Positions 80 to 56,880 of a stretch of DNA of 64,000 bases are shown here, piece by piece (position 1 is the first letter of the stretch; every line of letters begins with the position of its first letter). Below the pieces are notes generated by a model. The model was given only the letters and a program-made list of their open reading frames with translations, was not told where the DNA came from and searched no databases. Source of the stretch: Candidatus Peribacteria bacterium (GTDB lineage: Bacteria > Patescibacteriota > Gracilibacteria > Peribacterales > Peribacteraceae); the NCBI GenBank assembly GCA_023245775.1, contig JAHFJR010000002.1, forward strand, positions 1,902 through 65,901, written 5' to 3'. Both the position numbers and the translations under genes were made by a program.

Positions 80-306
80 CTCTGAGGGGGGAATGGAAGT
101 AGAGGAGGCCGCGGGGCCGAGTCCGGAAAGTCCGAACGTGAACGAACGTACACCTTCTCTTTTCTCCCTGCAAGAGAAACAGATTGAAGAAAATATTTTT
201 TGTTTTCCACTCCTACTTTTTTTGCGGTCTGTCGAGGCAGAGAAGATCGCTTCGCAGTACACTTTCACGTAACTCCGCGCTCAGAATTTTTTTCGCGCAG
301 CGATTC

Positions 307-3300
307 ATGATCAAGCGTCTCCTTCTCCTTCCTCTGGCCCTCGCCTCTCTCACCGTTGCCGTGACTGCGAGTGCAGACAATTTTCGTCCGAAGATGAGCC
401 GCCCCGAGAGCTATAAGGACATACTCTATGGGGTGGATGAGGTGCACAGAAACCTTGATTCGGTGCAGTGCGGCGGGTGGGTGGCGGGAGAACAGCAGGT
501 GGATGGAACGAGTGTGACGGGGGATGTGCCGCGGCCAAACAACGGAGACATCATCGATCTCCCAGGCCACCAGAACCCCGATCCTCTTGGCAATGCGAAG
601 ACCGGAGTTGGGGTCCGTGGAGAGTTCGCATTCCCCGACAGTGCGCGTGGGTACGATTCCGCATGTGATATCCATGAAGACCAGATCCAGGATCCAGACC
701 TCCAGAGACTCGGGATCGACCTGCAAATTCATGAAGACGGGAGTGTGGAAGCCGTTGCCGGCGACGGTCACATCGACATCAATCCCTTCCACTGGTGCCT
801 TCTCGATGATCGAGCCGACAAGGCGACGCCCATGTACTGCAAGAGACTCTTCGAAGCATGGAAGCAGATGTCAGAACTTGGAGATTTCTGTCGCGACATG
901 GAAGTGTGTCCCGGCCCCGTCTGCGAAGATCAAGAGATCTGTGATGATGAAGGATGTCACACCGAGAGTGTCTGCACGGACCAACCGTGTCGCACCGAGA
1001 ATATCTGTACCTCCATTCATCCTCCTATTCAGAGTACGTGTGACTGCGAAGCATTCGCTCCAGAGGAACGTGATTACTGTCCACCTCGTCCCGAGAAGAG
1101 GTACTGCTTCGATCCACAGTACACCTTCGTCTGCGAAGGGAGCAGTGCGGTGCAGGAGCCGGTGCACAGCATCCTCCAGCAGGATGAGTCCAATGATGTA
1201 ATTTCCACGACCGATCTGCCACCGCAACCACTCACGTGTCGCACGCCGTGGAAACCGAAGATCGATAACAAGATGACCGAGTGCCACTTCAATAAGATTT
1301 GCGAACCGGATATCTGTCACGATGAAACAATCTGTGGAGACGAGTGTCATACCGAGGAGAAATGTGAAGACGTGTGCCATGAGGAAGAGAAATGTGAAAA
1401 CGAGTGTCATACCGAGGAGAAATGTGAAGACGTGTGCCATGAGGAAGAAATCTGCGATGAGGATGGATGTCGTACCGAAGAAATCTGTGAACCTGAATGC
1501 CATGATGAAGAAATCTGTGAGGATGGATGTCGTACCGAAGAAATCTGTGAACCTGAATGTCATGATGAAGAAATTTGTGAGGAGGCGTGCCACGATGAGC
1601 AGTTCTGTACTCCTGGTCCCTGCTTCTACCAGGAAGTGACTGATGAAGAAGGAAGGCATGATGCGATCACTGCTTCGTACTACCGTCACTACGCGGGGGA
1701 TTTTTCGGACCTCGGTGTCTCTGTGAGGGCAGAGAGCGGGACAGGGACAGTGAAAACATGGAATCTCCGTGCCGAATGTTATGAGTATTACAAAGGTTCA
1801 GTGACGGATGAGGACACTGGTAACGGGAGCGGAGATTTCGATCCGAAGGACACGATCACGGGGGGGATGGATGACGCGCAGAATCACGAGCAGTGTGAGA
1901 TCGTCCTCGATGGTGCAGACCAAGAGCACCCCGAGAATCTCCAGTGGCCGGATGGCGATGGGCACGCACAGAAGGAGAATGTTCCAGCACACACCCAAAC
2001 GGGATCCGTGCGTGACGAACGGGTCGCACCCGATCCGTGGGTGACCGATAGCAGCACGAATCTCGCACTAACAGGGACCAAGAAAGACCGACATACGAGA
2101 TTCTATGATACGGACCTTGCGGGACTCTTTGGGTCCATCATTCCCGTCAAGCAGCGCGCGAGCGAGACGGTTGCCGATCACGCGCGAACAGATACCTTCG
2201 ACGATACCGATCACCGTGGGCTTGCGGGATACTGGGAAGCGCAGCAGAAGATCCTTCTGCAGATGGTTCGCGACCCCACTGTGCGCCTGATCATGCCTGC
2301 GCGGTTCCTCACCGGACTCGATGATAAGAACCCGCTCTACCAGTACGTACGCGGCATCGTTTCCAGATCTGATGGTATCGTGGAGCTCACGCTGCGCGGA
2401 GGTCCCGACGACCTCGGGAATGCGCTCGCCGCACTGCGCAGTAGCTACGTCTTACCGATCACCGAAGTGCCTATTCCGATTCTCCTTCCGCTCGTCTCCA
2501 TCGAGGATCTCGATCGATTGATCTTCCAGTGGCAGCAGTGGCAGGCTCAGGAAGAGAAGCAGGGCTCTGAGTTCGCTTCGCAGGCCGACCCACTCATCGA
2601 GAAGCTCCGTCACTACAAGGACATCATTCTCTCGGAGCGGAAGTTGCGTGGTGCTCTCAATAAGGAGGTGACGACACTCTTCGAGCCGATCCGCGTGTTC
2701 GATGAATTCATGGCGAAGTGGTACAAGGACAACACGGAGAAGATCAAGGAAGCTGCCGTACAGTCGAATCAGCGGAAACAGCTGAAGCGTATCTGGCGCC
2801 ATCTCCAGAACTCGATGCTGCAGGCGGACACATGCCAGTTGCAGTGGTGCTCGAATATGCGGTACTCGGTTCCGATCTACTCGCTCCTCGATGGCTGGTG
2901 GCAAGAGGAGGAGGCTGCTGCTGGGGACGCAAGGAATCTGGATTACGTTCCGCCAGACGATCTTCGCACTATCGAGTTCACGCCTCCGAAAGATCAACTG
3001 TACGATTTCTCATTCCTCGATCTTCCGAGAGGGCAGTTCAGGATCCCCGTCCTCTCTCCCACACAGGTGAAAGTGAACCTTCCTCTGCCACCCCAGTCGC
3101 GTTCTCCGGTCCAAAATCCTGAGGATTTCCCCGATCTCCCCTCCCTCCCCGATGCGTCGGTCTTCGATGGCTTCCCCGTGCCTGAGGTGCACCTTCCAGA
3201 GGAGAGAGTGCTCGAGGTAGAGGTAGAGGCGTCAGATCTCGGGCCCGTCAAGGAGGTGCTTCGTGCGTTCCGCCAAATCATCGACGGCACATCGATCGAT

Positions 3301-3864
3301 GATCAGATTGCGCAGGAGGAGAGCGAAGACAGCAACGGAGGGATCCTCGAAGACGAAGGTCCGTACGAACCTCCGTACGATCGCACCAGCATGCGCGGTG
3401 CGTACTGCCGCTTCGTACGCAGCATCTTGATTTCGCCCGATGCCAACGAAGAGAACCCCGGTGATGATCAGCATGGGGACCCCGAGAAGATCGTGCACGT
3501 CGAAGGGGACCTCAAGGAGCGTGTCGCACGCCTCTTCTCTCGGTGGATGCCGATCCTCCCAGAGGACCGGGCTGGCAGAACGGCCCGTCTGAACGAAGAA
3601 TTTCCAGATCCAGATGTCCCGCCCACCTGCAAGGAGGATGTGATCTGCGCCTTCCTCCTCGGCGAACGAACCACGATGGTACCGTGGAAACTCTTCTTCC
3701 CTGATCAGACCACGGACTTCACCGCCCTCCGCGAGAACATGAAGTCACAGACACTTCCTCAGACGGACGATGAGAATCCGTATCTCCATGCCCCCGTGTC
3801 TCTGCTCAAGCGCCTCTTCCCATCTATCGATCTCCCGATCACGATCGATCTCACGGTCCAATGA
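307..3864 (+). CDS. orphan exported protein, 1185 aa, with an acidic Cys/His-rich repeat region
   Basis: Long ORF. The internal ATG at 307 gives a signal peptide MIKRLLLLPLALASLTVAVTASA. There are dozens of Cys in an acidic context and no family I recognise. First gene of an overlapping operon. Confidence 0.8.
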   Translation: MIKRLLLLPLALASLTVAVTASADNFRPKMSRPESYKDILYGVDEVHRNLDSVQCGGWVAGEQQVDGTSVTGDVPRPNNGDIIDLPGHQNPDPLGNAKTGVGVRGEFAFPDSARGYDSACDIHEDQIQDPDLQRLGIDLQIHEDGSVEAVAGDGHIDINPFHWCLLDDRADKATPMYCKRLFEAWKQMSELGDFCRDMEVCPGPVCEDQEICDDEGCHTESVCTDQPCRTENICTSIHPPIQSTCDCEAFAPEERDYCPPRPEKRYCFDPQYTFVCEGSSAVQEPVHSILQQDESNDVISTTDLPPQPLTCRTPWKPKIDNKMTECHFNKICEPDICHDETICGDECHTEEKCEDVCHEEEKCENECHTEEKCEDVCHEEEICDEDGCRTEEICEPECHDEEICEDGCRTEEICEPECHDEEICEEACHDEQFCTPGPCFYQEVTDEEGRHDAITASYYRHYAGDFSDLGVSVRAESGTGTVKTWNLRAECYEYYKGSVTDEDTGNGSGDFDPKDTITGGMDDAQNHEQCEIVLDGADQEHPENLQWPDGDGHAQKENVPAHTQTGSVRDERVAPDPWVTDSSTNLALTGTKKDRHTRFYDTDLAGLFGSIIPVKQRASETVADHARTDTFDDTDHRGLAGYWEAQQKILLQMVRDPTVRLIMPARFLTGLDDKNPLYQYVRGIVSRSDGIVELTLRGGPDDLGNALAALRSSYVLPITEVPIPILLPLVSIEDLDRLIFQWQQWQAQEEKQGSEFASQADPLIEKLRHYKDIILSERKLRGALNKEVTTLFEPIRVFDEFMAKWYKDNTEKIKEAAVQSNQRKQLKRIWRHLQNSMLQADTCQLQWCSNMRYSVPIYSLLDGWWQEEEAAAGDARNLDYVPPDDLRTIEFTPPKDQLYDFSFLDLPRGQFRIPVLSPTQVKVNLPLPPQSRSPVQNPEDFPDLPSLPDASVFDGFPVPEVHLPEERVLEVEVEASDLGPVKEVLRAFRQIIDGTSIDDQIAQEESEDSNGGILEDEGPYEPPYDRTSMRGAYCRFVRSILISPDANEENPGDDQHGDPEKIVHVEGDLKERVARLFSRWMPILPEDRAGRTARLNEEFPDPDVPPTCKEDVICAFLLGERTTMVPWKLFFPDQTTDFTALRENMKSQTLPQTDDENPYLHAPVSLLKRLFPSIDLPITIDLTVQ
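1315..1607 (+). repeat. in-frame tandem array, 30-nt / 10-aa period (C-H/R-x-E-E-x-C-E-x-x), about 9-10 units
   Basis: 1341-1380 is identical to 1401-1440 (40/40). 1461-1499 is identical to 1521-1559 (39/39). Translation: CHTEEKCEDVCHEEEKCENECHTEEKCEDVCHEEEICDEDGCRTEEICEPECHDEEICEDGCRTEEICEPECHDEEICEEACHDEQFC. Confidence 0.9.
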
Positions 3865-9112: not shown

Positions 9113-12100
9113 GTGAAATCCTCCGACTTCGTCCATCTCCACTGTCACAGTACCTTCTCGCTCCTCGAGGCGGTGCCTTCCCCCGAAGAGATCATTCTCC
9201 GTGCCAAAGAACTTGGCCAGACTGCGGTGGCGCTTTCGGACAAGGGCTATACGTACGGCCTCATCGAGTTCTATAAAGCAGCGAAGGATCATGGCCTGAA
9301 GGCGATTCTCGGACTCGAGACCTACGTCGCCGCTCGCACGAGACATGACAAAGAGAGCTCCAGCGATACCCGTCGCTCTCCATTGGTCCTCCTCGCAGAG
9401 ACCGAAGAAGGGTACCACAACCTCCTCCAGCTCGCGACGAAAGCTGCGCTCGAGGGCATGTACTACAAGCCGCGTGTCGATACCGAACTTCTGAAACAGT
9501 ACGGCAAGGGGCTCATCGCCCTCACGGGGCCGTTGAGTGGTGCGATCCCGCAAGCGGCACTCGCCGGAGATGATCAGCGAGTGAAGATGCTCCTTGAGCA
9601 GTATCGATCTTTCTTTGGTTCTGAGAATGTCTACTTCGAGCTGAATGATCTACCGAATGTGCCAGGACAATCCGAAACCAATCAGCAACTCATCCGCTAT
9701 GCGAAAGAATTCTCGGTGCCGCTCGTGGCCACGTGCAACAGTCACTACTGCAGACCGGAAGACAGCGAAGCGCACGATGTCCTCCTGTGTATCCAGAAGA
9801 ACGCAAGCGTCACCGACACGAGTCGATTTTCGATGATGGGGAGCGATTTCTCGATGCGTCCGTTCGAGGAGATGGAGACAGCATTTGCCCACGTACCCGA
9901 GGCACTGGAGAATACGCGGGTCATCGCGGATCGGTGCAGCGTGAAGATTCCCTTCGGTCAGTACAAGATCCCCAGTTTCCCCGTGCAGGAAGGGCAAACG
10001 GAAGAGTCGCTCCTGAAGAGTCTGTGTGACACAGGTCTCGAGCGGCGGTATGGGGCGATCCTGAAAAAAAGCCCCGAGCGCACACAGGAAATTCAGTCTC
10101 GTCTTGCCTACGAACTCGAGGTCATCAAGAAAATGGGATTCTCTGGATACTTCCTCATCGTTGCTGACTTCATCTGCGAAGCGAAGAAGCGCGGCATCAC
10201 CGTCGGTCCAGGGCGCGGATCGGCAGCGGGATCCATCGTGAGTTACGTGCTCGATATCACCACACTTGATCCGCTAGAGCACGGTCTTCTCTTCGAGAGA
10301 TTCCTCAACCCCGAGCGTATCAGCATGCCGGATATCGATATCGACTTCGCTGACACACGTCGAGATGAAGTCCTCGAATACGTACGTGGGAAGTACGGTG
10401 CCGATCGCGTCATCCAGATCTGCACGTTCGGGACGCTCGCGGCACGCGCTGCCGTGAAAGATGTTGGCCGTGCATTCGGCGTGTCCTTCGCCGAGATGAA
10501 TGCGCTTGCAAAATTGATTCCAGATCGCCCCGGTACGACCCTCGAGGAGGCTCTCAGCACCGACGAACTGCAGCAGGAAATTGGTAGCAACGAGACCTAC
10601 CGCAAGATTCTGGAGATTGCACTGAAGCTCGAAGGCAAGGCGCGTCACGTGTCGGTCCATGCATGTGGTGTCGTCATCACACCCGAACCGGCAGTGCAGT
10701 ACACCGCGCTCCAGCGTGCGCCGAAGGATGAGAACACCATCATCACCCAGTACGACGCGAAGCCGCTCGAATCGCTCGGCCTTCTGAAGATGGACTTCCT
10801 CGGCCTCAAGAACCTGACGATCATCCAGACGGCTCTCCTCATCATCGAGCGTATGCACAGCGTGAAGATCGACATGGCAACGATCCCAACGAACGACAGA
10901 AAGACGTTCGAACTCCTCTCGCGCGGCGAAACGACGGGGGTGTTTCAACTCGAGTCCGCTGGGATGCGGCGGTATCTGAAGCAACTGAAGCCTACTGCCT
11001 TCGACGACATCACCGCCATGGTCTCGCTCTATCGGCCTGGTCCGATGGACAAGATCCCCGACTACATCAAGTGCAAGAATGGCCAGAAGGATGTCTCGTA
11101 CCTGCATCCCGATCTCGAGTCGATCCTGAAGCCGACGTACGGAGTGGGCATCTATCAGGAGCAGATTCTGGAGATGGCGCGCGTCTTTGCGGGTTTCTCC
11201 CTCGGGGAAGCCGACTTGCTGCGTCGGGCCATCGGCAAGAAGATCAAGAAGGAACTGAATGCACAACGTGAGAAATTCATCCGCGGAGCGGTCGCTCGTG
11301 GATACAAGGAGAAACTCGTGACGACGATGTTCGACGACGTCATCACACCGTTCGCGGGATACGGGTTCAACAAATCACACGGAGCGTGTTATGCGCGCAT
11401 CGCGTACGAAACAGCGTACCTGAAGGCGCACTATCCGACGGATTTCATGGCCGCACTCCTCAGTAGTGAGGACGGTGACACCGACCGCATCAGCATCGAG
11501 ATCGAAGAGGCGCGCGCGATGGGGATCGCGGTGCTGCCGCCGGATATCAACGAATCCCTCGCGCACTTCACGTCGCTCGAGGGCGGCAAGATCCGCTTCG
11601 GCCTCCTCGGCATCAAGGGAGTGGGCGAGAGTTCCATCCGTCAGATCCTGGCCATTCGCGACGGAGTAGATGGGAAACATCGGGCACCTTTTACGAGCAT
11701 CGAAGATCTCGCCATGCGCGTGCCGAGTAAACTGCTCAACAAGAAATTGCTGGAGTCTCTGGCGAAGTCAGGAGCCTTCGACTCACTCGGAGAACGAGCG
11801 ATGCTTGTCTCCCAGTATGACAAGATCGCCGACTGCAGCAAATCCACGTGTGACAGAGGCGCTTCGCAGGCCGATCTCTTCGAGTCTCTTGGGGGTGGCT
11901 CTGCGAATGCTTCCATCGCCTTCGATCCTACGGATCCCGCAAGTCCCCACCAGAAATTGATGTGGGAGAAGGAGACGCTGGGGCTCTATGTCAGCAGCCA
12001 TCCGCTTGCAGGACTCAGGAAGTACATCAGCAAGAAGGCGAGACTCATCGAGACACTCACGGGTGATGACATCAACAGGAAGGTGACGGTGGCTGGCATC

Positions 12101-12937
12101 AGAGAGCAGATGAAACTGATCCATACGAAGAAGGGGGACACGATGGCGATCATCACGATCGAAGATCCCACCGGTCGCATGGAGGTGACGCTGTTCCCGC
12201 GAGTCTATGCCCAGTTCAAAGATCTCCTCGAGAAGCCAGATTCCTTCCTCGTACTCGCAGGCATGCTCGATATGCGTATGGGGCAGCCACAGTTGAAAGC
12301 GGAGGCGATCAAACGTGTCTCCCTCGAGACGATGGTGCAGAAGGCCAAGCAGGAAGGCATGTTCCATGAAGAGGAGACGAAGAACTGGAGTAGTGCCGGC
12401 AGTCGTCGCCATGGAGAAGAGGAGATCCCAGCAACGGTAGAGACGGGCGCGGATGAAGAGATCGCTCCCACCATCGTTCCAAGGTCTCCTGTCATGGCAT
12501 CCCCCTCAGAGAGCCCTCTCGGCCCGCTCGCGGCGTGGATTCAGAGCGGCATGCAGACAGAAGAATCCCTGAAGAAGGTCGGGCTGGAAGGATATGTAGT
12601 GAAAGACGGAAAGTTGAAAGTGCCTGCCTGCCGGACAGGCAGGGAAAGTGAGGATGGAACTGTCAACCTTCCACTGTCCCCGTCCGACCGCATCCGGGCG
12701 GGCACTGTCCACAAGCAGTTTTCCATTTCCATCCACACCATCACACTCCCATCCCGCGCACCGAAACAACTCCTCCTCGATGTGAAGTCGATCTTCGAGA
12801 CATTCCCCGGCTCCGAGAAGGTGCAGCTGAAGATCGGAGAGAAAGATGTGCCGGTGGGACTCACGATCACCATGTCTCCCTTGCTTGAAAAACGCATCGA
12901 AGAGGCGGTGAAGAAGTACGGAGAAGTGGAGAGTTGA
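9113..12937 (+). CDS. dnaE: DNA polymerase III alpha subunit (1274 aa)
   Basis: PHP-domain N-terminus FVHLHCHSTFSLLEA. Conserved pol III alpha blocks (GPGRGSAAGS, PDIDIDF, LKMDFLGL, GYGFNKSH). OB fold near the C-terminus. GTG start 14 nt after the upstream stop. Confidence 0.95.
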   Translation: MKSSDFVHLHCHSTFSLLEAVPSPEEIILRAKELGQTAVALSDKGYTYGLIEFYKAAKDHGLKAILGLETYVAARTRHDKESSSDTRRSPLVLLAETEEGYHNLLQLATKAALEGMYYKPRVDTELLKQYGKGLIALTGPLSGAIPQAALAGDDQRVKMLLEQYRSFFGSENVYFELNDLPNVPGQSETNQQLIRYAKEFSVPLVATCNSHYCRPEDSEAHDVLLCIQKNASVTDTSRFSMMGSDFSMRPFEEMETAFAHVPEALENTRVIADRCSVKIPFGQYKIPSFPVQEGQTEESLLKSLCDTGLERRYGAILKKSPERTQEIQSRLAYELEVIKKMGFSGYFLIVADFICEAKKRGITVGPGRGSAAGSIVSYVLDITTLDPLEHGLLFERFLNPERISMPDIDIDFADTRRDEVLEYVRGKYGADRVIQICTFGTLAARAAVKDVGRAFGVSFAEMNALAKLIPDRPGTTLEEALSTDELQQEIGSNETYRKILEIALKLEGKARHVSVHACGVVITPEPAVQYTALQRAPKDENTIITQYDAKPLESLGLLKMDFLGLKNLTIIQTALLIIERMHSVKIDMATIPTNDRKTFELLSRGETTGVFQLESAGMRRYLKQLKPTAFDDITAMVSLYRPGPMDKIPDYIKCKNGQKDVSYLHPDLESILKPTYGVGIYQEQILEMARVFAGFSLGEADLLRRAIGKKIKKELNAQREKFIRGAVARGYKEKLVTTMFDDVITPFAGYGFNKSHGACYARIAYETAYLKAHYPTDFMAALLSSEDGDTDRISIEIEEARAMGIAVLPPDINESLAHFTSLEGGKIRFGLLGIKGVGESSIRQILAIRDGVDGKHRAPFTSIEDLAMRVPSKLLNKKLLESLAKSGAFDSLGERAMLVSQYDKIADCSKSTCDRGASQADLFESLGGGSANASIAFDPTDPASPHQKLMWEKETLGLYVSSHPLAGLRKYISKKARLIETLTGDDINRKVTVAGIREQMKLIHTKKGDTMAIITIEDPTGRMEVTLFPRVYAQFKDLLEKPDSFLVLAGMLDMRMGQPQLKAEAIKRVSLETMVQKAKQEGMFHEEETKNWSSAGSRRHGEEEIPATVETGADEEIAPTIVPRSPVMASPSESPLGPLAAWIQSGMQTEESLKKVGLEGYVVKDGKLKVPACRTGRESEDGTVNLPLSPSDRIRAGTVHKQFSISIHTITLPSRAPKQLLLDVKSIFETFPGSEKVQLKIGEKDVPVGLTITMSPLLEKRIEEAVKKYGEVES
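12623..12703 (+). repeat. palindromic repeat modules embedded in frame in the dnaE 3' region
   Basis: cctgcctgccggacaggcaggg (12623-12644) is followed by a ccttccact motif. The 27-nt string tccccgtccgaccgcatccgggcgggc (12677-12703) recurs identically at 13394-13420. Confidence 0.8.
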
Positions 12938-13053: not shown

Positions 13054-13755
13054 ATGCACATTCTCCCCGAATCTCCGGAAGCCATTGATGCTGCTCTGAC
13101 CGTCCTGCAGTCGGGCGGCATCGTCATCCATGCGACGGAAACCTGCTACGGCATTGCGTGTGACCTTACGAATCCAAAAGCCGTTGAGAAATTATTCAGG
13201 GTGAAGAAACGACCACCCGATCAGCCCGTCAGCGCGTTATTCCCATCGATGTCCAAGGCTGAGGAGTATGTCGACTTCTCTCCGCGAGCCCTAGAGTTAG
13301 CCAAAAAGTATCTGCCGGGTCCACTGACGATCGTGCTTCCAAGCAAAGCAGATTCCCCCAACCTCTTCGTCATGCCCTCTCCCCCTGCCCCTCTCCCCGT
13401 CCGACCGCATCCGGGCGGGCCGTTCCGGGAGAGGGGTGACTCGTTCCCCTCTCCCCGAAGGGGGGAGGAGTTAGGGGTGGGGGCGACGATCGGCATTCGC
13501 ATTTCCTCCTTCCCTCTCGCGCAGATTCTGGCTTCGCGTTTTGGAAAACCGATGGCGACGACCTCAGCCAATCTTCATGGGCTGCCGAATCCTTACAGTG
13601 TTGCCGATATCCAGTTGCAGTTAGCAGACCAACAGCATCTTCCGGATCTCTTCATCGATAGCGGATCGCTCCCGATCGCTCCTCCATCGACCGTGATCGA
13701 AGTCATCGGTCAAGAGCTTAGAGTCCTGCGAAAAGGGGAAATTGCTATATATTAG
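13054..13755 (+). CDS. tsaC: L-threonylcarbamoyladenylate synthase, Sua5/YrdC/YwlC family (233 aa) with an internal repeat-derived insertion
   Basis: IHATETCYGIACD, KKRPPDQPVS, LPGPLTIVL and TSANLHG are YrdC-domain motifs. Confidence 0.85.
   Translation: MHILPESPEAIDAALTVLQSGGIVIHATETCYGIACDLTNPKAVEKLFRVKKRPPDQPVSALFPSMSKAEEYVDFSPRALELAKKYLPGPLTIVLPSKADSPNLFVMPSPPAPLPVRPHPGGPFRERGDSFPSPRRGEELGVGATIGIRISSFPLAQILASRFGKPMATTSANLHGLPNPYSVADIQLQLADQQHLPDLFIDSGSLPIAPPSTVIEVIGQELRVLRKGEIAIY
13373..13485 (+). repeat. composite palindromic repeat insertion in frame inside tsaC (about 37 codons)
   Basis: It lies between LPGPLTIVL... and ...IGIRISSFP and encodes PSPPAPLPVRPHPGGPFRERGDSFPSPRRGEELGVG. 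It contains the 27-nt string shared with dnaE and the hairpin cccctctcccc-gaa-ggggggagg followed by ttaggggtgg. Confidence 0.8.
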
Positions 13756-15119: not shown

Positions 15120-15257
15120 AGCCCTCACTCCGGCGCTGATGCGCCACCTCTCTCCATAAAAATGGAGAGAGGATGTCTAGGAATGAACTCGTATTGTTAT
15201 GGAACGCGGGCCCCCTCCTCTCCATTTTTATGGAGAGGAGGTTGGGAGGTGAGGGCT
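15120..15257. mobile_element. MITE-like palindromic element, copy 1 (138 bp)
   Basis: Terminal inverted repeats agccctcactcc / ggaggtgagggct. Internal hairpins ctctccataaaaatggagag and ctctccatttttatggagag. A near-identical copy is at 42525-42649. Confidence 0.8.
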
Positions 15258-15309
15258 GTACCAGAAATTTTCTGTCAACTTCTGTTCTTTCTTCCGCTAT
15301 CCTCCTCCC

Positions 15310-18038: not shown

Positions 18039-18057
18039 CGCAGTACAATGATTGTAT

Positions 18058-18118
18058 GCCCAGGTGGCGAACCTGCCTCCCGGAGGGAGGATGGCAGACC
18101 TGCCTACCGGCAGGCGCG
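18058..18118 (+). pseudogene. degenerate copy of the tRNA-Leu 5' part, interrupted by two palindromic modules
   Basis: gcccaggtggcgaa + [cctgcctcccggagggagg] + atggcagac + [ctgcctaccggcagg]. With the bracketed palindromes removed it matches the tRNA-Leu 5' end gccggggtggcgaaatggcagac (18373-18395) at 21/23 positions. Confidence 0.65.
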
Positions 18119-18141
18119 TCTTCCTTCCCTATTTCTCTTCT

Positions 18142-18408
18142 ATGTTTACAGTCTATGTGCTTCGTAGCCAAAAGCGAGAATATTGGTATGTAGGACTCAC
18201 TGCCAATCTTGAGCGTCGTGTTACTGAGCATCAGGATGGCAGAGAGCGTACGACAAAACCTTATCGTCCGTTTGATCTTGTACACACTGAAAATTTTACA
18301 ACTCGACCTGAAGCTCGAAAGAGAGAAAAATACTTAAAGTCAGGCTCTGGAAAAGAATGGTTAAAAACCCCTGCCGGGGTGGCGAAATGGCAGACGCATC
18401 AGCCTTAG
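18142..18408 (+). CDS. small GIY-YIG nuclease superfamily protein (88 aa)
   Basis: FTVYVLRSQKREYWYVGLTANLERRVTEHQ...ARKREKYLKSGSGKEW is a GIY-YIG (UPF0213-like) pattern. The 3' end overlaps tRNA-Leu. Confidence 0.75.
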   Translation: MFTVYVLRSQKREYWYVGLTANLERRVTEHQDGRERTTKPYRPFDLVHTENFTTRPEARKREKYLKSGSGKEWLKTPAGVAKWQTHQP

Positions 18409-18458
18409 GAGCTGACGGGAGCAATCCCATGGAGGTTCAAGTCCTCTCCCCGGCACCA
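18373..18458 (+). tRNA. tRNA-Leu (anticodon TAG), long variable arm, CCA encoded
   Basis: Manual cloverleaf. Acceptor GCCGGGG/CCCCGGC. Anticodon stem TCAGC/GCTGA with loop CTTAGGA. Variable arm cgggagcaatcccatg. T-arm GGAGG-TTCAAGT-CCTCT. Confidence 0.85.
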
Positions 18459-33068: not shown

Positions 33069-33302
33069 TGATTAGGGAACCTCTGAACAATGCCTTCTGC
33101 TTCGTCATCTGCGCCACTCTTTCCTTGTTCGGGAGCGCCATACCTGCCTGCCTTCCGACAGGCTTGGCGCGGGAAGCATCCCGCTCCCAATCAAATTTTG
33201 GCTTGCTTCCTCGCATAAGAAAATATTGTACATTCTATTGTAAGAATAATTTCATAACAGCAGCGCCCCTCCGCGGGCGCGGCGAACGTTGGACCGTCGC
33301 AG

Positions 33303-34224: not shown

Positions 34225-34301
34225 GGAGCCATAGCTCAGCTGGTTAGAGCGCTTCCCTGTCACGGAAGAGGTCGCGGGTTCGAATCCCGTTGGCTCCGCC
34301 A
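34225..34301 (+). tRNA. tRNA-Asp (anticodon GTC), CCA encoded
   Basis: Manual cloverleaf. GGAGCCA/TGGCTCC acceptor, GCTC..GAGC D-stem, CTTCC-CTGTCAC-GGAAG anticodon arm, GCGGG-TTCGAAT-CCCGT T-arm. Confidence 0.9.
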
Positions 34302-34311
34302 CGTCGTTCGC

Positions 34312-34393
34312 GAACGACGTGGCTCCGCCACCAACTACTCGAACGACGTGGCTCCGCCACCAACTACTCGAACGACGTGGCTCCGCCACCAAC
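34312..34393 (+). repeat. 2.8 tandem copies of a 29-bp unit carrying a copy of the tRNA-Asp 3' end
   Basis: Unit gaacgacgtggctccgccaccaactactc at 34312-34340 and 34341-34369, partial from 34370. gtggctccgcca compares with the tRNA 3' end ttggctccgcca. Confidence 0.9.
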
Positions 34394-34398
34394 CACGC

Positions 34399-34404
34399 TA
34401 CAAT
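34399..34404 (+). promoter_or_regulatory. -10 hexamer TACAAT, 6 nt upstream of ATG 34411
   Basis: Fits the TAnnnT-N6-ATG pattern. Confidence 0.4.
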
Positions 34405-34410
34405 GATTCC

Positions 34411-34668
34411 ATGTGGTACTTTTATGTGCTTCAAAGCATTAAACAGTCGGATTATTTTTACAAAGGATCAACCAATGATCTTCGAAGAAGATTCAGCCAA
34501 CACAACACTGGCGCAGTGACTTCGACCAAGCCATATCACCCTATGCGATTGGTGTATTACGAGGCATATGTCTCCGAGCATGGTGCGAGAATAAGAGAAG
34601 CTTCAGTGAAGAAAAGTGGCAGTGTGCTTGTATCATTGCTCAAGCGTATTCGAGAAAGTCTTGAGTAG
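34411..34668 (+). CDS. small GIY-YIG nuclease superfamily protein (85 aa)
   Basis: WYFYVLQSIKQSDYFYKGSTNDLRRRFSQHN...REASVKKSGS is a GIY-YIG pattern. The longer ORF-track version starts inside the tandem repeat. Confidence 0.75.
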   Translation: MWYFYVLQSIKQSDYFYKGSTNDLRRRFSQHNTGAVTSTKPYHPMRLVYYEAYVSEHGARIREASVKKSGSVLVSLLKRIRESLE

Positions 34669-34670
34669 CT

Positions 34671-34720
34671 CGCGGGGGTTGGCTCCGCCACGTCGCTCGC
34701 GAGCGACGTTGCTCCGCCAC
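34671..34720 (+). repeat. second copy of the tRNA-Asp 3' end plus a 20-nt palindrome, downstream of the GIY-YIG gene
   Basis: cgcgggggttggctccgcca + acgtcgctcgcgagcgacgt + tgctccgccac. Compare the tRNA 3' end + acgtcgttcgcgaacgacgt at 34291-34320. Confidence 0.85.
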
Positions 34721-34748
34721 ATCAAAAAATATTTCCTTTCTACGATTC

Positions 34749-36824: not shown

Positions 36825-38321
36825 ATGATCGATCCGCGCATCTTCCGTGCCTACGACATTCGTGGCAAAGCCCATGAGCAGCTCACTGAGGAGGCGTGCC
36901 TGCTGATCGGCAGAGCGTTCGGGGAGATTCTGCAGGAGAAATATGGGAAAGAGAACAAGCACCCGGCGGTCGTTGTTGGGCGCGATGCACGGCTACATAG
37001 TCCTGTGTTTGAAGAAAAAATTGTCGAAGGGTTACTCTTGGCAGGTTGTCAGGTTTTTCGCATCGGCCAGACACCGAGTCCCATTAACTACTTCACGATC
37101 TGTACCAAGAAATTCGACGCCGGCGTGCAGGTCACGGCGAGTCATAACCCGAAGGAAGATAATGGTCTGAAGCTTCAGATTCGTGATGCAGAAGCGTTCT
37201 CTGGAGAGGATTTGCAAGATCTTCGTAGGCGCATTGAACGCTCACTACAAGATTCCCCTCTCCCTTCGGGAGAGGGGCTAGGGGTGAGGGAAGGGCAGGC
37301 AGGGGTGAGTGCCGAAAACTTCGATGCAATCACCCCTTACACCTCTTTTCTGACGCAACTTTTCCCCAACGTCGGCCAGGGCAAGAAAATCGTCGTCGAT
37401 GCCGGCAACGGGGTCGCGGGGCCCGTGTACTGCGAGGTGCTGAGGAAGGTCGGCTGTGAGGTGATCGAGATGTACACCGAACCGGATGGGAATTTCCCTA
37501 ATCACGCGGCGGACCCGAGCAAACATGCGACCCTCAGAGAACTGCAAAAACGAGTGGTGGATGAGAAAGCCGATTGCGGATTTGCATTCGACGGTGACGG
37601 AGATCGCATTGGGCTCATCGATGAGAGGGGCGCGATCGTGACGGCCGATTCAACCTTACTCCTCCTCGCGAAGGATCATCTATCGCGTCATCCGAAAGCG
37701 CCGATCATCTTCACCGTGAGTAACTCGAGCCTGCTCGAGAGCGAGGTGAAGGCGTGGGGCGGAGTCCCCGTAATGTGCAAGGTCGGCCACTCGTTCGTGG
37801 AGCATGCGATGCGAGAGCACGGAGCCAAACTCGGCGGCGAGCAGTCGGGACATTTCTTCTGTGGAGAGGATTATTTCGGATTTGATGACGCGCTGGTTGC
37901 GGGACTCAGGATGTTGGCGATTCTTGGATCAACGTGGGCCGAACGCCCGCTCCCTTTGATGGAATCTACAACACAGAAGAAACGGAGCGCCCGTTCGGGG
38001 CGCGTTGACTCGAGAGTATCCGTTTTGATCTCAGCTTTCCCTCGCACCTACCAAACCCCCGAATTCCGTCCACACTGCGCAGATGAGAAAAAATCCGAGG
38101 TCGTTCGTCTTGCCACAGCGCACTTTGCAAAAAAATACCCCGTCGTCACTCTCGACGGCGCACGCATCGATTTTGGTGATGGCGCATGGGCGGGGATACG
38201 AATAAGCAATACGAGTCCGTGCCTGAGCATCTGCATCGAGGCGCGGAGTCCGAAAAAGTTGAAACACGTGGAATCGGAGGTTTTGGAACACTTGAAGACC
38301 TATCCGGAGGTCGAGTTGTAG
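36825..38321 (+). CDS. phosphomannomutase/phosphoglucomutase family protein (498 aa) with repeat-derived insertions
   Basis: IFRAYDIRG, the active-site block TASHNPKEDNG, GFAFDGDGDR and GGEQSGH are alpha-D-phosphohexomutase motifs. Confidence 0.9.
   Translation: MIDPRIFRAYDIRGKAHEQLTEEACLLIGRAFGEILQEKYGKENKHPAVVVGRDARLHSPVFEEKIVEGLLLAGCQVFRIGQTPSPINYFTICTKKFDAGVQVTASHNPKEDNGLKLQIRDAEAFSGEDLQDLRRRIERSLQDSPLPSGEGLGVREGQAGVSAENFDAITPYTSFLTQLFPNVGQGKKIVVDAGNGVAGPVYCEVLRKVGCEVIEMYTEPDGNFPNHAADPSKHATLRELQKRVVDEKADCGFAFDGDGDRIGLIDERGAIVTADSTLLLLAKDHLSRHPKAPIIFTVSNSSLLESEVKAWGGVPVMCKVGHSFVEHAMREHGAKLGGEQSGHFFCGEDYFGFDDALVAGLRMLAILGSTWAERPLPLMESTTQKKRSARSGRVDSRVSVLISAFPRTYQTPEFRPHCADEKKSEVVRLATAHFAKKYPVVTLDGARIDFGDGAWAGIRISNTSPCLSICIEARSPKKLKHVESEVLEHLKTYPEVEL
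37255..37309 (+). repeat. palindromic repeat module in frame inside the PMM/PGM gene
   Basis: cccctctccc-ttcg-ggagagggg followed by ctaggggtgagggaagggcaggcaggggtgag. It encodes SPLPSGEGLGVREGQAGVS. The same module type occurs at 13441-13483 and 51375-51446. Confidence 0.8.
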
Positions 38322-40854: not shown

Positions 40855-40948
40855 GTCGTGGAAAGTGAAGAGTGGAACGTTGGAAGGACGATCGATGTTG
40901 GATCACATCATTCTTTGCTGGAGCAGTATTTTGGATGCCTCATTCCTG

Positions 40949-41083
40949 TCCTCACCCCTGCCTGCCGGCAGGCAGGTCCCGTCCTCCTCTCCACTGATGT
41001 GGAGAGGAGGTGGCCTGTGTTTCACTAAAAACAGTGCGCCCTTCTCCAGCCCTCAGGCAGGAGAAGGGTCGGGGATGAGGACC
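40949..41083. mobile_element. 135-bp nested palindromic element related to the MITE-like family
   Basis: Ends gtcctcacccc / ggggatgaggac. Serial hairpins: cctgcctgccggcaggcagg (perfect 20-nt palindrome, 40957-40976), cctcctctcca-ctgatg-tggagaggagg, cccttctcc..ggagaaggg. Confidence 0.7.
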
Positions 41084-41272
41084 GTCAAGGCTGAAGCAGA
41101 GAACAGTAGACGCATTGCTCATGTCTGCAGCTTCTGTGTACTCCACCAAAGAATGATGGGATCCGATGTTCCGCCATCCTCGTTTATCGTAGATGCTTCA
41201 CAGCATCTGGAGAAGAGAGTACCGTCACCTTCCACCTTCCACTTTCCGCTTTCAACGTTCCACCCTATTTTT

Positions 41273-41926
41273 ATGAAGATCAATGTTCTCGCACTTGCCT
41301 CCTGTTTTCTCCTCGTCGCCTGCTCTGGTGATATCGCACGGGGACGAGCCGAGTATGATCGTGCGGTGCAGTACTTGCAGGGGGTGGGGAGGGAGAAGGA
41401 TGAAACGAAGGGGATTGCGCTCCTCGAGAGTGCGAGCGATGCAGGAAATGCGGATGCGCAGATACGACTTGGGTACCTGTATCTGAGAGGCAAGAGCATC
41501 GCCAAGGATGATGTGAAAGCACTCCTCCTCTTCAAGCGTGCGGCGTTGCAGGGGAATGCAGATGCGCAGTACAACGTTGGACTGGCGTACGTCAAAGGGA
41601 TTGCGACAGTGGAAAATCTGAAGGAAGCATTCGCGTGGTTTCTGAGGGCTGCCCTTCAAGGCGATGCAGGATCACAGTACAACCTCGGTGTGATGTACAT
41701 GAATGGGGAGGGCGTGGTGCGCGATCCGCTTGCTGCGTACGTGTGGTTCAAAGAGGCCACGGACAACGGGTATGAGGGTGCGAAACAGGCCCTCGAGAGT
41801 GCCAGAAGTCTCCTTTCGAGTGATCAAGTGAAGGCGCTCCGTGATGAAGTAGAGAAGATCGAACACCGTATCAAGAAGCCGAGACCCACCCCGCAGGCCG
41901 TGGAGGTCCAGACACAACCGTTGTAG
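41273..41926 (+). CDS. Sel1-repeat (TPR-like) lipoprotein (217 aa)
   Basis: Lipobox FLLVACSG. Repeated GNADAQxxLGxxYxxG Sel1 motifs. Confidence 0.8.
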   Translation: MKINVLALASCFLLVACSGDIARGRAEYDRAVQYLQGVGREKDETKGIALLESASDAGNADAQIRLGYLYLRGKSIAKDDVKALLLFKRAALQGNADAQYNVGLAYVKGIATVENLKEAFAWFLRAALQGDAGSQYNLGVMYMNGEGVVRDPLAAYVWFKEATDNGYEGAKQALESARSLLSSDQVKALRDEVEKIEHRIKKPRPTPQAVEVQTQPL

Positions 41927-41935
41927 GCTCGTTCC

Positions 41936-42562
41936 ATGCGTGTCCTCCTCCTCGACAACGACGATTCGTTCACGTGGAACCTATGGCAGCTCATCCGTTC
42001 ACTCGGTGCCGACTGCGACGTGGTCCATCATCGTGAGACATCGATCGCGGAGATCAAACAATACAAACCTGATCGTATCGTGATCTCGCCAGGTCCGGGA
42101 GGCCCTGCAGAAGCCCTTCTTGCGTGTGAGGTGATCAGGAAATTTGGTCGAAAAATTCCCATCCTTGGAGTTTGCCTTGGACATCAGTGTCTGGCGCATG
42201 TTTTCGGAGGGAGGAATTCGGTGATGCGTGCGCCGAGTGTCATGCATGGGAAGACGAGCAAGGTGTTGCATGGCGGCACCAGTATTTTTTCTGGAGTACC
42301 TTCGCCCTTGAAAGTCGCTCGGTACCATTCACTGATCGTGCAGTCATTGCCGGAGGGGTTTGAGTTGCTGTGTTGGACTCAGGAGCGCGATGCTTCGCGC
42401 GGAACACAAGAAACATTGATCATGGCCATGCGGCACAAGACGTTGCCACTGTTTGGCGTGCAGTTTCATCCGGAATCTTTTTTGACGGAGTATGGAGAGG
42501 AGTTGATGAGGAATTTTCTGTACCAGCCCTCACTCCGGCCTGTGGGCCACCTCTCTCCATAA
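41936..42562 (+). CDS. pabA: glutamine amidotransferase component II of aminodeoxychorismate/anthranilate synthase (208 aa)
   Basis: ILGVCLGHQ with the catalytic Cys, FGVQFHPES. The last 12 codons and the stop lie inside the MITE-like element. Confidence 0.85.
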   Translation: MRVLLLDNDDSFTWNLWQLIRSLGADCDVVHHRETSIAEIKQYKPDRIVISPGPGGPAEALLACEVIRKFGRKIPILGVCLGHQCLAHVFGGRNSVMRAPSVMHGKTSKVLHGGTSIFSGVPSPLKVARYHSLIVQSLPEGFELLCWTQERDASRGTQETLIMAMRHKTLPLFGVQFHPESFLTEYGEELMRNFLYQPSLRPVGHLSP

Positions 42563-42649
42563 AAATGGAGAGAGGATGCCTAAAAATGAGAGAAGGGAGA
42601 GGCCCCCTCCTCTCCATTTTTATGGAGAGGAGGCTGGGAGGTGAGGGCT
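42525..42649. mobile_element. MITE-like palindromic element, copy 2 (125 bp)
   Basis: Same termini and hairpins as 15120-15257; only the central about 20-30 bp differ. Confidence 0.8.
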
Positions 42650-42657
42650 GTTACAAT
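42649..42657 (+). promoter_or_regulatory. extended -10 TGtTACAAT, 7 nt upstream of the pabB ATG 42665
   Basis: The TG lies at the last bases of the MITE-like element. TACAAT at 42652-42657. Confidence 0.45.
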
Positions 42658-50806: not shown

Positions 50807-51991
50807 ATGCGCATCCTCTTCACCCGTTTCCCTCTCGAGAGCGCCGACGGCGGCAGCGAGAATCAGACGATCTGGCTGATGGAGGGGCTAAGGGCTCGCG
50901 GGCATGAGGTGAGTTTTCTCGGAAGTTGTGATGTTCTCTTGCGTCGCACAAAAGAATTGGGAATGAAGAATGATGAATTAAGAATAGGGATTCCTCCTGT
51001 AACGAAATGGGGAGCGATCAGTTTTCTCTGGCGAAGAAAAAAAATGCAACAAACTCTGATTGCAGAAGTGCAGAAACTTTCCACTTTCCCTACCTGTCCG
51101 GTAGGCAGGCACTTTCCACCTTCCACTCTTATCATGCTCAGCCTCAGCGAGAAGCTCCTCCTCACTCCTTGGGCAGTCTCGCAGGGCATGAGAGTGATCT
51201 GGATCGAGCACGACCGCATCGGAGCATGGCTTCGATGGAATCCTTGGCTGCCGATGCTTCGACGTCTCTCGAAGCTCGTGACGATCGTCTGTGTGTCTGA
51301 ACTGAGCAGGAAGATGTATGAAGAGATTGGGTTTGAGAAGAGCAATCTTATCGCTATTCCGAATGGGATTCCTTCCCCTCTCCCTTCGGCCCGCCCGAAC
51401 GTACCCATTCGGTACGGGCGGGGAGAGGGGTCAGGGGTGAGGGAGGAAAAACAACTCCGTCTCGGTTGTCTCTCCCGCCTGAGTCCCGAAAAGGGTGTGG
51501 ATGTGCTCATACAATCTCTCGAATCCCTGCCGGAAGTGTCTCTGAGCATCGTCGGAAAGGGGCGTGATGAGGCGTACCTTCGTCAGTTGATCTTGGATGA
51601 CACGCAGCGCATGGGGGGAGAGCGGATCACTCTGACATCCTCCGTCGAGGATCTCGATGCGTTCTATCGTTCACTCGATGTGCTCGTCCTTCCCTCCTCC
51701 GACCATGATCCATTTGGGTTGGTTGCGGCAGAGGCGATGATGCGCGGTCTCCCCGTCATTATCACCGATGCATGCGGTATCGCAGGGTACATGGAACACG
51801 ATGAGGATGCCCTGATCGTTCCTGCAGGATCGCCGCGAGCCCTTACAGATGCCATTCAGCATCTTCTTGAGCCTCGGGCACGAGAACGGCTGGGTGCGAG
51901 GGGACAGACGAAGGCAGAAGAGCGCTTCAGTTTGAGCAGAATGATTGATGCCTATGAGGAATTGTTGCTCGGGGAGAGAAAATGTGTTTAG
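50807..51991 (+). CDS. glycosyltransferase family 4 (GT-B, group 1) (394 aa) with two repeat-derived insertions
   Basis: MRILFTRFPLESADGGSE N-domain. The C-domain SRLSPEKGVDVLI...VLPSSDHDPFGLVAAEAMMRGLPVI is an EX7E-type motif. Confidence 0.85.
   Translation: MRILFTRFPLESADGGSENQTIWLMEGLRARGHEVSFLGSCDVLLRRTKELGMKNDELRIGIPPVTKWGAISFLWRRKKMQQTLIAEVQKLSTFPTCPVGRHFPPSTLIMLSLSEKLLLTPWAVSQGMRVIWIEHDRIGAWLRWNPWLPMLRRLSKLVTIVCVSELSRKMYEEIGFEKSNLIAIPNGIPSPLPSARPNVPIRYGRGEGSGVREEKQLRLGCLSRLSPEKGVDVLIQSLESLPEVSLSIVGKGRDEAYLRQLILDDTQRMGGERITLTSSVEDLDAFYRSLDVLVLPSSDHDPFGLVAAEAMMRGLPVIITDACGIAGYMEHDEDALIVPAGSPRALTDAIQHLLEPRARERLGARGQTKAEERFSLSRMIDAYEELLLGERKCV
51077..51128 (+). repeat. ttccac-flanked palindromic module in frame in the GT4 gene
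   Basis: ctttccactttccc + tacctgtccggtaggcagg + cactttccaccttccactc, encoding STFPTCPVGRHFPPSTL. The same architecture occurs at 53998-54061. Confidence 0.8.
51375..51446 (+). repeat. nested palindromic module in frame in the GT4 gene
   Basis: cccctctcccttcgg [cccgcccgaacgtacccattcggtacgggcgg] ggagaggggtcaggggtgagggagg, encoding SPLPSARPNVPIRYGRGEGSGVRE. Confidence 0.8.
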
Positions 51992-56758: not shown

Positions 56759-56880
56759 TGCTATCTTTCCCCTGACGGGGCCGAAGGTACCACCGTTTCC
56801 TCTCGAGGAAGGTTGGCGGACGCGTATTGGGTCGGTTACCCTGCCTACCGGCAGGCAGGCACGCGTCACTCTTGATAGGC
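56759..56880 (-). promoter_or_regulatory. SAM-I-type riboswitch aptamer upstream of metK
   Basis: Minus strand: CUAUCAAGAG...CGCCAACC-UUCCUCGAGAGGAAA-CGGUGGUACC...GGGGAAAGAUAG. P1 CUAUC/GAUAG. The conserved AAGAG, GCCAACC, GGUG and GAAAGAU elements appear in SAM-I order. Confidence 0.7.

Follow-up and report, generated by a model that had tools for sequence, protein, structure and literature searches.

A repeat-derived 37-codon insert in the TsaC gene of a Peribacteria genome, read as the probable remnant of a small DUF559 cassette

A segment of 111 nt built from repeats lies in frame within the gene for threonylcarbamoyl-AMP synthase of the TsaC/YrdC family in a Candidatus Peribacteria genome (assembly GCA_023245775.1), and it is the subject of this study. 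The DNA analysed is a stretch of 64,000 nt of contig JAHFJR010000002.1 (positions 1,902 to 65,901), which is called the window below and whose own numbering is used throughout. We consider it probable that the insert is what is left, after loss of the open reading frame (ORF), of a DUF559 cassette found at this TsaC site in related lineages: both terminal units and a nested mini-hairpin would persist and would be read through as a flexible loop. In other words, we read the insert as a miniature derivative of a small selfish cassette, comparable to a MITE (a miniature transposable element with inverted repeats). The evidence comprises the anatomy of the insert, the site that it has in common with other carriers, the graded states of that site, the spread of the unit across phyla, its statistical link with DUF559 and the intragenic copies that keep the frame in other genes.

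The gene and the parts of the insert are the following.

13054..13755, + strand: gene for the TsaC/YrdC-family threonylcarbamoyl-AMP synthase, 233 aa, host of the insert
13375..13485, + strand: whole insert, 111 nt or 37 codons (residues 108-144), made of two inverted hairpin-plus-tail units without an ORF, their tails outward
13375..13387, + strand: left tail CCCTCTCCCCCTG, the reverse-complement sense of the AGGGGTGAGGG-type tail
13388..13436, + strand: left hairpin with arms CCCCTCTCCC and GGGAGAGGGG, stem 10, loop 29 nt
13394..13420, + strand: nested mini-hairpin, a 27-mer exact in dnaE too, with its 24-mer core at 13397-13420
13437..13445, + strand: spacer of 9 nt, TGACTCGTT, between the two units, at the place of the DUF559 ORF in the related locus L125
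13446..13468, + strand: right hairpin CCCCTCTCCCC-GAA-GGGGGGAGG
13469..13485, + strand: linker and right tail, AGTT-AGGGGTGGGGG-CG, which directly adjoins the conserved IGIRISS strand and can be aligned with the L125 cassette at its right end

One unit consists of CCCCTCTCCC-loop-GGGAGAGGGG followed by a AGGGGTGAGGG-like tail, and the insert holds two of them in inverted orientation. An initial annotation of this DNA had placed a repeat-built insertion, a multiple of three in length and without a stop, between LPGPLT and IGIRISS, and this is borne out: the insert occupies the loop between these motifs, is in frame 0, contains no stop and encodes PSPPAPLPVRPHPGGPFRERGDSFPSPRRGEELGVGA. Its start had been put at 13373, which is 2 nt too early. 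The 27-mer common to dnaE and TsaC had been seen correctly, as had the hairpins of the same type in a PMM and a GT4 gene described below, but the arrangement of two inverted units with a nested mini-hairpin had been missed. Since the homologous left hairpin of another Peribacteria locus (L126) has only the 3-nt loop GAA, we regard the 29-nt left loop and its 24-mer as a secondary, nested insertion.

Several tests against shuffled sequence bear on the repeats. The 24-mer CCGTCCGACCGCATCCGGGCGGGC occurs exactly at 12680-12703 in dnaE and at 13397-13420 in tsaC, with 0 expected in 100 shuffles, and together with the preceding TCC it forms the exact 27-mer of 12677-12703 and 13394-13420. With at most one mismatch, the tail AGGGGTGAGGG is found 6 times as against 0.93 expected, a number that none of the 100 shuffles attains, and the left tail forms an inverted repeat with 51415-51443 of the GT4 gene (83% complementary). 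A generic census of G+C-rich hairpins was uninformative (95 in the window vs 64-81 in shuffles), and hence specific repeat families were analysed instead. GTAG and CTAC are absent from the 111 nt, and CGTC occurs solely within the nested 24-mer. The motif GGG-AGA-GGGG-CTA-GGGG-TGA-GGG fits the pattern of a G-quadruplex and might suggest a switch between hairpin and quadruplex, but in TsaC this pattern is degenerate. Folded as RNA, the insert forms a single composite hairpin of -80.2 kcal/mol (z = -4.3), and a scan of the whole window against Rfam at E<=1 returned two tRNAs only.

At the protein level the host is clearly TsaC. PF01300 matches the ORF with E=6.9e-44 (149.9 bits vs a cut-off of 25.1) and is divided by the insert into two stretches. 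The relatives in the PDB are 1jcu, 9d3h and 2eqa; the alignments with 1jcu and 9d3h cover residues 7-99 and 141-229, and what lies between residues 99 and 141 of the query is only ~8-11 residues in these two solved structures. In an alignment of 43 orthologues, K51, R53, S171, N173 and every other invariant residue are retained, the catalytic motifs KxR and SxN being both present. The AlphaFold2 model has a mean pLDDT of 91.7, which falls to 50-60 over residues 121-140, with residues 98-144 as coil, and by Foldseek it matches TsaC2/Sua5 structures at E ~1e-17 and a TM-score (query) of 0.72. Mapped on this YrdC fold, the insert is predicted to form a disordered loop at the surface, with strands 91-97 and 145-149 on either side. 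As had been presumed in the initial annotation, such a loop is very probably tolerated by the enzyme; the YrdC fold and the catalytic residues appear unharmed by the 37 residues, which probably have no role in the synthesis of N6-threonylcarbamoyladenosine (t6A) and would be functionally neutral.

It could be argued that we see a pseudogene in decay, or an insert produced by faulty assembly, a chance that we regard as close to negligible. The insert itself is the only oddity in its favour. The ORF is intact, all residues invariant in the 43-sequence alignment are kept, the fold is predicted with confidence by AlphaFold2 and matched by Foldseek, and the gene order dnaE-tsaC-(x)-nrdR-aspS is conserved among relatives. 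Moreover, the identical insert DNA is present in two further independent assemblies from the same population, so it is not an accident of assembly.

Alternatively, the insert may be absent from the mature protein, either as an intron or an intein or through programmed bypassing as in T4 gene 60 and the mitochondrial 'byp' elements. Bypass elements are GC-rich hairpin inserts, and a very stable hairpin within a coding region would suit this explanation. A preprint also connects a mobile element with the gap of T4 gene 60 (10.1101/2022.08.31.505936). However, an intron of group I or group II would not fit into 111 nt, and at the insert Rfam finds nothing; no Hint/intein domain is present in the insert or in the full cassettes of relatives; the take-off and landing codons for bypassing do not match (ATG before the insert, GCG at its end), no stop follows the take-off site, and 111 is 3 x 37. 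In addition, the frame is preserved and free of stops here and in all verified intragenic copies, which removal would not need. We consider removal extremely improbable, and since the frame is preserved in this way the insert is probably translated. The intron, intein, bypass and pseudogene readings were accordingly rejected on the evidence of frame, domains, Rfam, codons and conservation.

The same TsaC site was compared in other Peribacteria. TsaC homologues place the window in Peribacteria/Peregrinibacteria, within the Candidate Phyla Radiation (CPR), and the closest TsaC orthologue is merely 57-62% identical. The states that were found at the site are listed here.

L128: site empty, with a loop of 87 nt
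L125/P0071 and P0046: full cassette in frame, in the order tail'-hairpin, DUF559 ORF, hairpin-tail
L126/P0093: hairpin pair without ORF, like the window
L127/P0119: one collapsed palindrome
L123: a different hairpin family in the loop
L124: unrecognisable sequence

The site is therefore polymorphic across Peribacteria, being empty, full or degenerate, of which the window has the degenerate state only. In both carriers of the full cassette (P0071, 339 aa; P0046, 386 aa) Pfam reads one continuous ORF in the order PF01300, PF04480/PF18741 (DUF559), PF01300. In L125 the DUF559 ORF is preceded by CCCTCCATCCCTTAAT-CCCTTCCTCC-GGG-GGAGGAAGGG and followed by CCCCTTCACCC-ATC-GGGGGAAGGGG-TC-AGGGGATGGGGG-CGAAAACC-ATCGGCAT; these are the tail'-hairpin and hairpin-tail ends of the window, whose right end reads ...TTAGGGGTGGGGG-CGACG-ATCGGCAT. 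Over ~46 aligned positions the right ends differ at 8, and the junctions with the TsaC coding sequence agree within few codons across carriers. The DUF559 domains of the two TsaC carriers match each other best (53%) and have an indel in common; a free-standing DUF559 of Peribacteria (L124) is 38-43% identical to them. The carriers are scattered, a handful among 114 orthologues, and the nearest TsaC relatives of each are without the element. Compared with the orthologues that have an empty site, 4-9 native loop residues appear replaced by the insert, not duplicated. The repeat-derived origin that had been proposed for the insert is upheld by these results, and the DUF559 cassette at the same site, which lies in related genomes, could not be visible to a reader of the window.

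The initial annotation had the insert split a pair of fixed motifs, which does not hold. Among the 114 Peribacteria orthologues the segment from LPGPLT to IGIR ranges from 19 to 206 residues, 35 of them being at the baseline of 19-24 residues, and a segment so variable in length means that the insert sits in a permissive loop and not between rigidly spaced motifs. The same data bear on the proposal that the insert is a functional loop which is ancestral in Peribacteria TsaC and specific to this lineage, serving for example to dock TsaB/D/E or tRNA, in which case its resemblance to other loci would be convergent low complexity. It is true that the loop is longer in all Peribacteria orthologues than in solved TsaC/Sua5 structures. 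Yet neither its sequence nor its length is conserved, the insert is predicted to be disordered, and the resemblance is found at the level of nucleotides, with an exact 24/27-nt identity to dnaE and to 11 unrelated metagenome contigs, and with identity of the unit to PMM, to GT4 and to at least 120 loci in other phyla. We therefore hold an ancestral loop to be very improbable.

Two further observations concern this loop. In L123 it is filled, at 10333-10353, by a second hairpin family of the form CCTGCCTG(N2-8)CAGGCAGG, which encodes LPVRQAG there. Moreover, TsaC loops of 27-30 residues mostly hold an internal direct duplication of 3-5 residues, such as KPVNQ..KPVNQ, AQSS..AQSS, PATS..PATS or LSP..LSP (P0005, P0009, P0034, P0047, P0070, P0078, P0097, P0104 and others), and these duplications may be footprints or flanks of lost hairpin elements.

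Within the window, copies of the repeats are also found in three other genes.

12608..12716, + strand: in-frame insertion of ~35 aa in the C-terminal linker of dnaE, with a CCTGCCTG..CAGGCAGG hairpin at 12623-12643, GGAAAG-type flanks and the second 27-mer at 12677-12703
37255..37291, + strand: lone hairpin-plus-tail unit within the PMM/PGM gene; it encodes SPLPSGEGLGVRE, which lies in the linker of domains I and II
51375..51444, + strand: lone hairpin-plus-tail unit within the GT4 gene, with further hairpins nested inside it, at residues 197-221, where a linker joins the two Rossmann domains

All of these copies lie in linkers or loops. The dnaE segment is missing from the two closest DnaE orthologues compared, those of L123 and L128. 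At the PMM site the orthologues P0129, P0133, P0148 and P0167 are empty and others have units of their own, so this site is polymorphic as well. The PMM protein has, beside this, a second hypervariable site after LRILxIL (window ~37900-38020, residues ~370-410, alignment columns 455-535), where the inserts of orthologues are unrelated to one another, of low complexity and from 0 to ~60 residues long, some of them looking hairpin-derived (PQPRRAAAGAK...RGRGE).

Outside the window the unit is widespread. The pattern GGGAGAGGGGNNAGGGGTGAGGG, with 21 specified bases, was searched for in contigs of one genome per species and matched at least 120 loci exactly. Among the matches listed there are Chloroflexota, Acidobacteriota, Cyanobacteria, Alpha-, Beta- and Gammaproteobacteria, Planctomycetota, Gemmatimonadota, Bipolaricaulota, Gracilibacteria and Peribacteria, and in nearly all of these loci a CCCCTCTCCC-type arm, at times with a mismatch, stands 3-5 nt upstream. 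The unit was also found in 60 contigs of IMG/VR. As to the 24-mer, it recurs base for base in 11 metagenome contigs (L189-L199) with a GC content of 38-58% and unrelated flanks, and it has the look of a very small hairpin element in its own right, spread widely. The repeats at the window loci are thus present as first described, but they are not private to this genome, since both unit and 24-mer occur in many unrelated bacteria; the similarity to dnaE, PMM, GT4 and other phyla is at the same time the opposite of what the initial annotation expected of an ancestral loop, namely a segment with no nucleotide match elsewhere.

Many of the copies are intragenic. Among the genome loci listed, 37 of the 136 unit copies lie in ORFs that continue for 100 aa or more to either side. 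The unit can be open in five of its six frames, each of which is in use among the copies; read on one strand it gives Pro/Ser/Leu, on the other Gly/Glu/Arg. Nine hosts of in-frame units or cassettes were verified by Pfam: PurL, a P-type ATPase, a Peribacteria UvrC, an amidohydrolase and an aminotransferase with units, a Ser/Thr kinase (Pkinase) with a unit between HRDLKPEN and DFG, and MetRS, MetH and an N6-methylase with entire DUF559 cassettes. In every verified intragenic copy the frame is kept.

Some details of these distant copies may be added. Several copies of the 24-mer, which has CGTC near its 5' end, lie between short direct repeats (ACTGTCC on both sides in dnaE, AACCCCC in L197). 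Seven related viral contigs (L129, L132, L142, L153, L163, L167, L169) have the unit at or in the 5' part of one gene, which by its sequence looks like a phage portal protein. In four unrelated genomes of Proteobacteria type (L011, L051, L064, L027) the unit is embedded in gcggaaatgg-N-ccatttccgc-actgtaca-[unit]-tcgagcggcgtaaagc..., a multi-hairpin context, perhaps a structured RNA or some larger conserved element. Head-to-tail arrays of the unit with a period of 42-45 nt occur in Anaerolineae and Caldilineales (L029, 2839-2945; L022, 82-149).

The link of the unit with DUF559 is statistical and, where cassettes are complete, anatomical. Among the loci listed, 7 of the 10 DUF559 hits lie within 150 nt of an exact unit as against 9% expected, and the remaining 3 are flanked by variant units. 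When 12 DUF559 hits from several phyla and from Peribacteria (L124, L125) were examined, most had inverted hairpin(+tail) units on both sides, the exceptions being L058, which is readable upstream only, and L124, where hairpins were seen downstream only. De novo clustering of ORFs within 800 nt of a unit gave DUF559 as the largest family across loci (10 loci among the matches listed), the other recurrent clusters being housekeeping or phage structural genes; no transposase family recurs within this distance of the 136 genome-locus units listed, or of the ~200 units that include the viral contigs. The cargo gene of ~330 nt has a Vsr-like PD-(D/E)XK endonuclease fold, and the DUF559 segment of P0071 matches PDB 3hrl, an 'endonuclease-like protein', with E=8e-12. 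A survey of the PD-(D/E)XK superfamily groups DUF559 with Vsr, 3r3p and the homing endonuclease I-Bth0305I of a group I intron (PMC3424549), whose family has been described (PMC3239194). A phage vector for the cassette was also considered and rejected; the 60 viral loci carry the unit and none has DUF559, so such a vector is unsupported.

On this basis the following course of events may be proposed for the favoured reading, that of a remnant of the DUF559 cassette. The ends of the cassette are inverted copies of a ~35-nt unit, each a G+C-rich 10-bp hairpin with a tail of 11-13 nt, and its cargo, where present, is a DUF559 gene between them. This genome has just the two ends, 9 nt apart, and a separate mini-hairpin of 24-27 nt has entered the loop of the left one. 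Avoidance of stops in up to five of the six frames would let the ribosome read the unit through. Mobility might be provided by the DUF559 nuclease, through a break followed by copying from a filled site, which is the weakest link of the chain; the ORF would have been lost here after the invasion, which would put this site at the degenerate end of a homing-type cycle in which sites pass from empty to full to decayed.

Several points weigh against this reading. The order of events may have been the reverse, the ORF having entered an existing pair of hairpins instead of being lost from a full cassette. A close relative without the insert was sought and none was found, which leaves this lineage without a true before/after pair. 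Beside the TsaC, PMM and GT4 copies no direct repeat was seen that would be a target-site duplication. Among the matches listed, ~94% of the exact units have no adjacent DUF559, and it may be that the hairpins have another way of spreading and that DUF559 only settles between them. The orientation of the flanks differs by locus, with tails inward or outward, so that a simple model of terminal inverted repeats (TIRs) does not explain the layout. Neither a DUF559 gene nor a transposase was found in the 64-kb window, and the source of mobility in this genome is therefore putative. Finally, we know of no demonstrated homing or transposition activity of DUF559, which Pfam lists as a domain of unknown function.

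The main alternative is that the hairpins are repeats of the REP (repetitive extragenic palindromic)/REPIN or TIR type, moved in trans by a tyrosine (HUH) transposase associated with REPs (RAYT) or with TIRs (TIRYT). DUF559 would then be a secondary settler with a preference for hairpin pairs, and in TsaC the insert would be a REPIN-like doublet in which there was never an ORF. Its anatomy, two inverted palindromic units with a short spacer, is indeed like that of a REPIN, and the majority of the exact units among the matches listed are solo. The main unit, however, has neither GTAG nor CGTC as a tag, and a Y1 transposase was not found among 30 mid-size ORFs of the window. Within 800 nt of the units listed DUF559 recurs in 10 loci and no transposase family does so, though this is a weak argument given that RAYT genes are single-copy and act in trans. 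REP families are mostly confined to a species or genus, whereas the same unit is present in Chloroflexota, Acidobacteriota, Cyanobacteria, Proteobacteria, Planctomycetota and CPR. On the other side, REPs within genes are documented, the TIRs around TIRYT genes share GGGGWSAS, a consensus that by our reading the tail GGGGTGAG fits, and the nested 24-mer has CGTC at positions 2-5, like CGTC-tagged REPs and Rickettsia palindromic elements (RPEs) (PMC3733652). All in all, we judge this alternative unlikely.

Returning to the cassette, we may ask how far the TsaC case extends. DUF559 genes with inverted hairpin-plus-tail flanks may form a pan-bacterial class of selfish cassettes inside essential genes, with neither intron nor intein, that would be translated through, their terminal hairpins becoming Pro/Gly-rich linkers and the host enzyme staying functional; after decay, remnants of 35-110 nt would be left as solo ends or pairs, and the TsaC insert would be a scar at a recurrent homing site. 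We put this wider proposal forward tentatively, at a little below an even chance.

Apart from the unit, the window has other hairpin repeats. The second family, CCTGCCTG(N2-8)CAGGCAGG, usually has direct repeats of CACYTTCC type on both sides and occurs at 12623-12643, 18098-18118, 33143-33166, 40957-40976, 51089-51109, 54012-54032 and 56840-56863, mostly inside ORFs (the dnaE linker, the GT4 N-domain, an amidase/SpoIID linker and the N-terminus of a Sel1 protein). Two small GIY-YIG ORFs are associated with hairpins and tRNAs. One, at 34348-34668, is directly downstream of the tRNA at 34225-34298 and is bracketed by a 29-nt palindrome, GCCACGTCGTTCGCGAACGACGTGGC (34291-34396 and 34680-34727), which overlaps the 3' end of the tRNA; it is another small nuclease gene between hairpins. 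The other, at 18052-18408, has CAGG-type hairpins at its 5' end (18075-18118), and its 3' end is overlapped by the tRNA at 18373-18455. An intergenic composite repeat of ~120 nt is present at 15140-15260 and 42543-42651 in copies 91-98% identical, with a third variant at 40983-41010; it consists of two A/T-looped hairpins, CCTCTCTCCATAAAAATGGAGAGAGG and CCTCCTCTCCATTTTTATGGAGAGGAGG, followed by TTGGGAGGTGAGGG, which resembles the tail of the TsaC unit. In the N-terminal third of the Sel1-repeat ORF 40865-41926, the segment 40949-41265 holds at least 4 different hairpin repeats upstream of the Sel1 repeats, and this segment may be a non-coding leader rather than protein. A coding repeat of another kind, 30 nt in tandem and in at least 7-9 copies, lies at 1335-1607 in the ORF 184-3864 (1226 aa) and encodes a Cys/His/Glu-rich decapeptide of the type C-E-D-x-C-H-x-E-E-K.

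If the cassette reading is true, Pro/Gly/Arg-rich loops that are so far unexplained in proteins of uncultivated bacteria would gain a concrete origin, and remnants of this kind would be a widespread origin, so far unrecognised, of the lineage-specific loops that bacterial and CPR proteins have. DUF559, a very common domain, would gain a role as the nuclease of mobile cassettes, and harmless read-through would be a third way to persist in essential genes beside self-splicing introns and inteins. The units also mark sites where enzymes permit insertion (such as TsaC, PMM, GT4, DnaE, MetRS, MetH and kinases), a help in protein engineering, and they are a recurring cause of gene-calling and alignment artefacts in metagenome-assembled genomes. 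Even the conservative reading alone gives a clear case of coding palindromes in an essential gene outside Rickettsia, namely in the Candidate Phyla Radiation.

In the literature outside most subscription journals we found no description of DUF559 cassettes with hairpin-plus-tail ends that are translated inside host genes, which is not proof of novelty; papers on DUF559 and EDxHD did not describe the arrangement, and a search by motif string led to unrelated eukaryotic papers only. Among short mobile repeats, Nostoc is reported to have small dispersed repeats of ~21-27 nt, said to be mobile, to stand in hairpin contexts and to nest in one another, in cyanobacteria and mostly outside genes. The 24-mer within the left hairpin loop resembles this nesting, as compared by description only.

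Homing nucleases of the Vsr-like 'EDxHD' type such as I-Bth0305I are alike in a related nuclease fold, in a fixed site within a conserved gene and in the succession of presence, absence and decay (PMC3239194, PMC2677866, PMC3384342). Their known members, however, reside in group I introns, in inteins, in the 'fractured genes' of split inteins or are free-standing, whereas here there is neither intron nor intein and the cassette would be translated through with Pro/Gly linkers encoded by the hairpins. The REP/REPIN-RAYT and TIR-TIRYT systems likewise consist of short G+C-rich palindromes, often in inverted doublets and some of them intragenic (PMC3116915, PMC3733652), and in the 'REPtron' and 'TIRtron' a protein gene is flanked by the same repeats, the TIRs having the GGGGWSAS that the tail fits (PMC3733652). 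The flanked gene here is DUF559 of the PD-(D/E)XK fold instead of an HUH tyrosine transposase, there is no GTAG tag, and many copies are intragenic and in frame with a sequence conserved across phyla.

Coding MITEs, for example QMITE1/2 of Coxiella, are non-autonomous and short, have inverted ends and give in-frame fusions or internal insertions (PMC5896051, PMC10969869); the insert is similar in that its terminal inverted repeats lie 9 nt apart without an ORF for a mobilising enzyme. It differs in showing no target-site duplication, in having hairpins as its ends and in that the putative parent is not an insertion sequence with a known transposase; longer relatives with the same ends and a DUF559 ORF do exist, DUF559 not being a proven transposase. 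RPEs, as summarised by others from Ogata et al. (2000, 2002), are palindromic repeats of ~100-150 nt that lie in frame in unrelated housekeeping genes, are translated, are judged compatible with the fold of the host protein and have no transposase of their own (PMC10969869, PMC3733652). The insert is likewise an in-frame palindrome in a coding gene, probably translated to judge by the preserved frame. RPEs are confined to Rickettsia and tagged by CGTC, while the main unit here is without CGTC and its host belongs to Peribacteria (CPR); it is a 35-nt hairpin plus tail, is found in many phyla, occurs solo, as an inverted pair or nested, and flanks a nuclease ORF in copies that look autonomous. 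Each of the known families is therefore missed by one defining feature: the genus and tag of the RPE, the target-site duplication of the MITE, the GTAG tag and, probably, the RAYT gene of the REP, and the intron or intein of homing elements. The insert appears to work like an RPE but is not one, and in its behaviour it is comparable to the coding palindromes and MITEs already known (PMC10969869, PMC5896051, PMC3184786).

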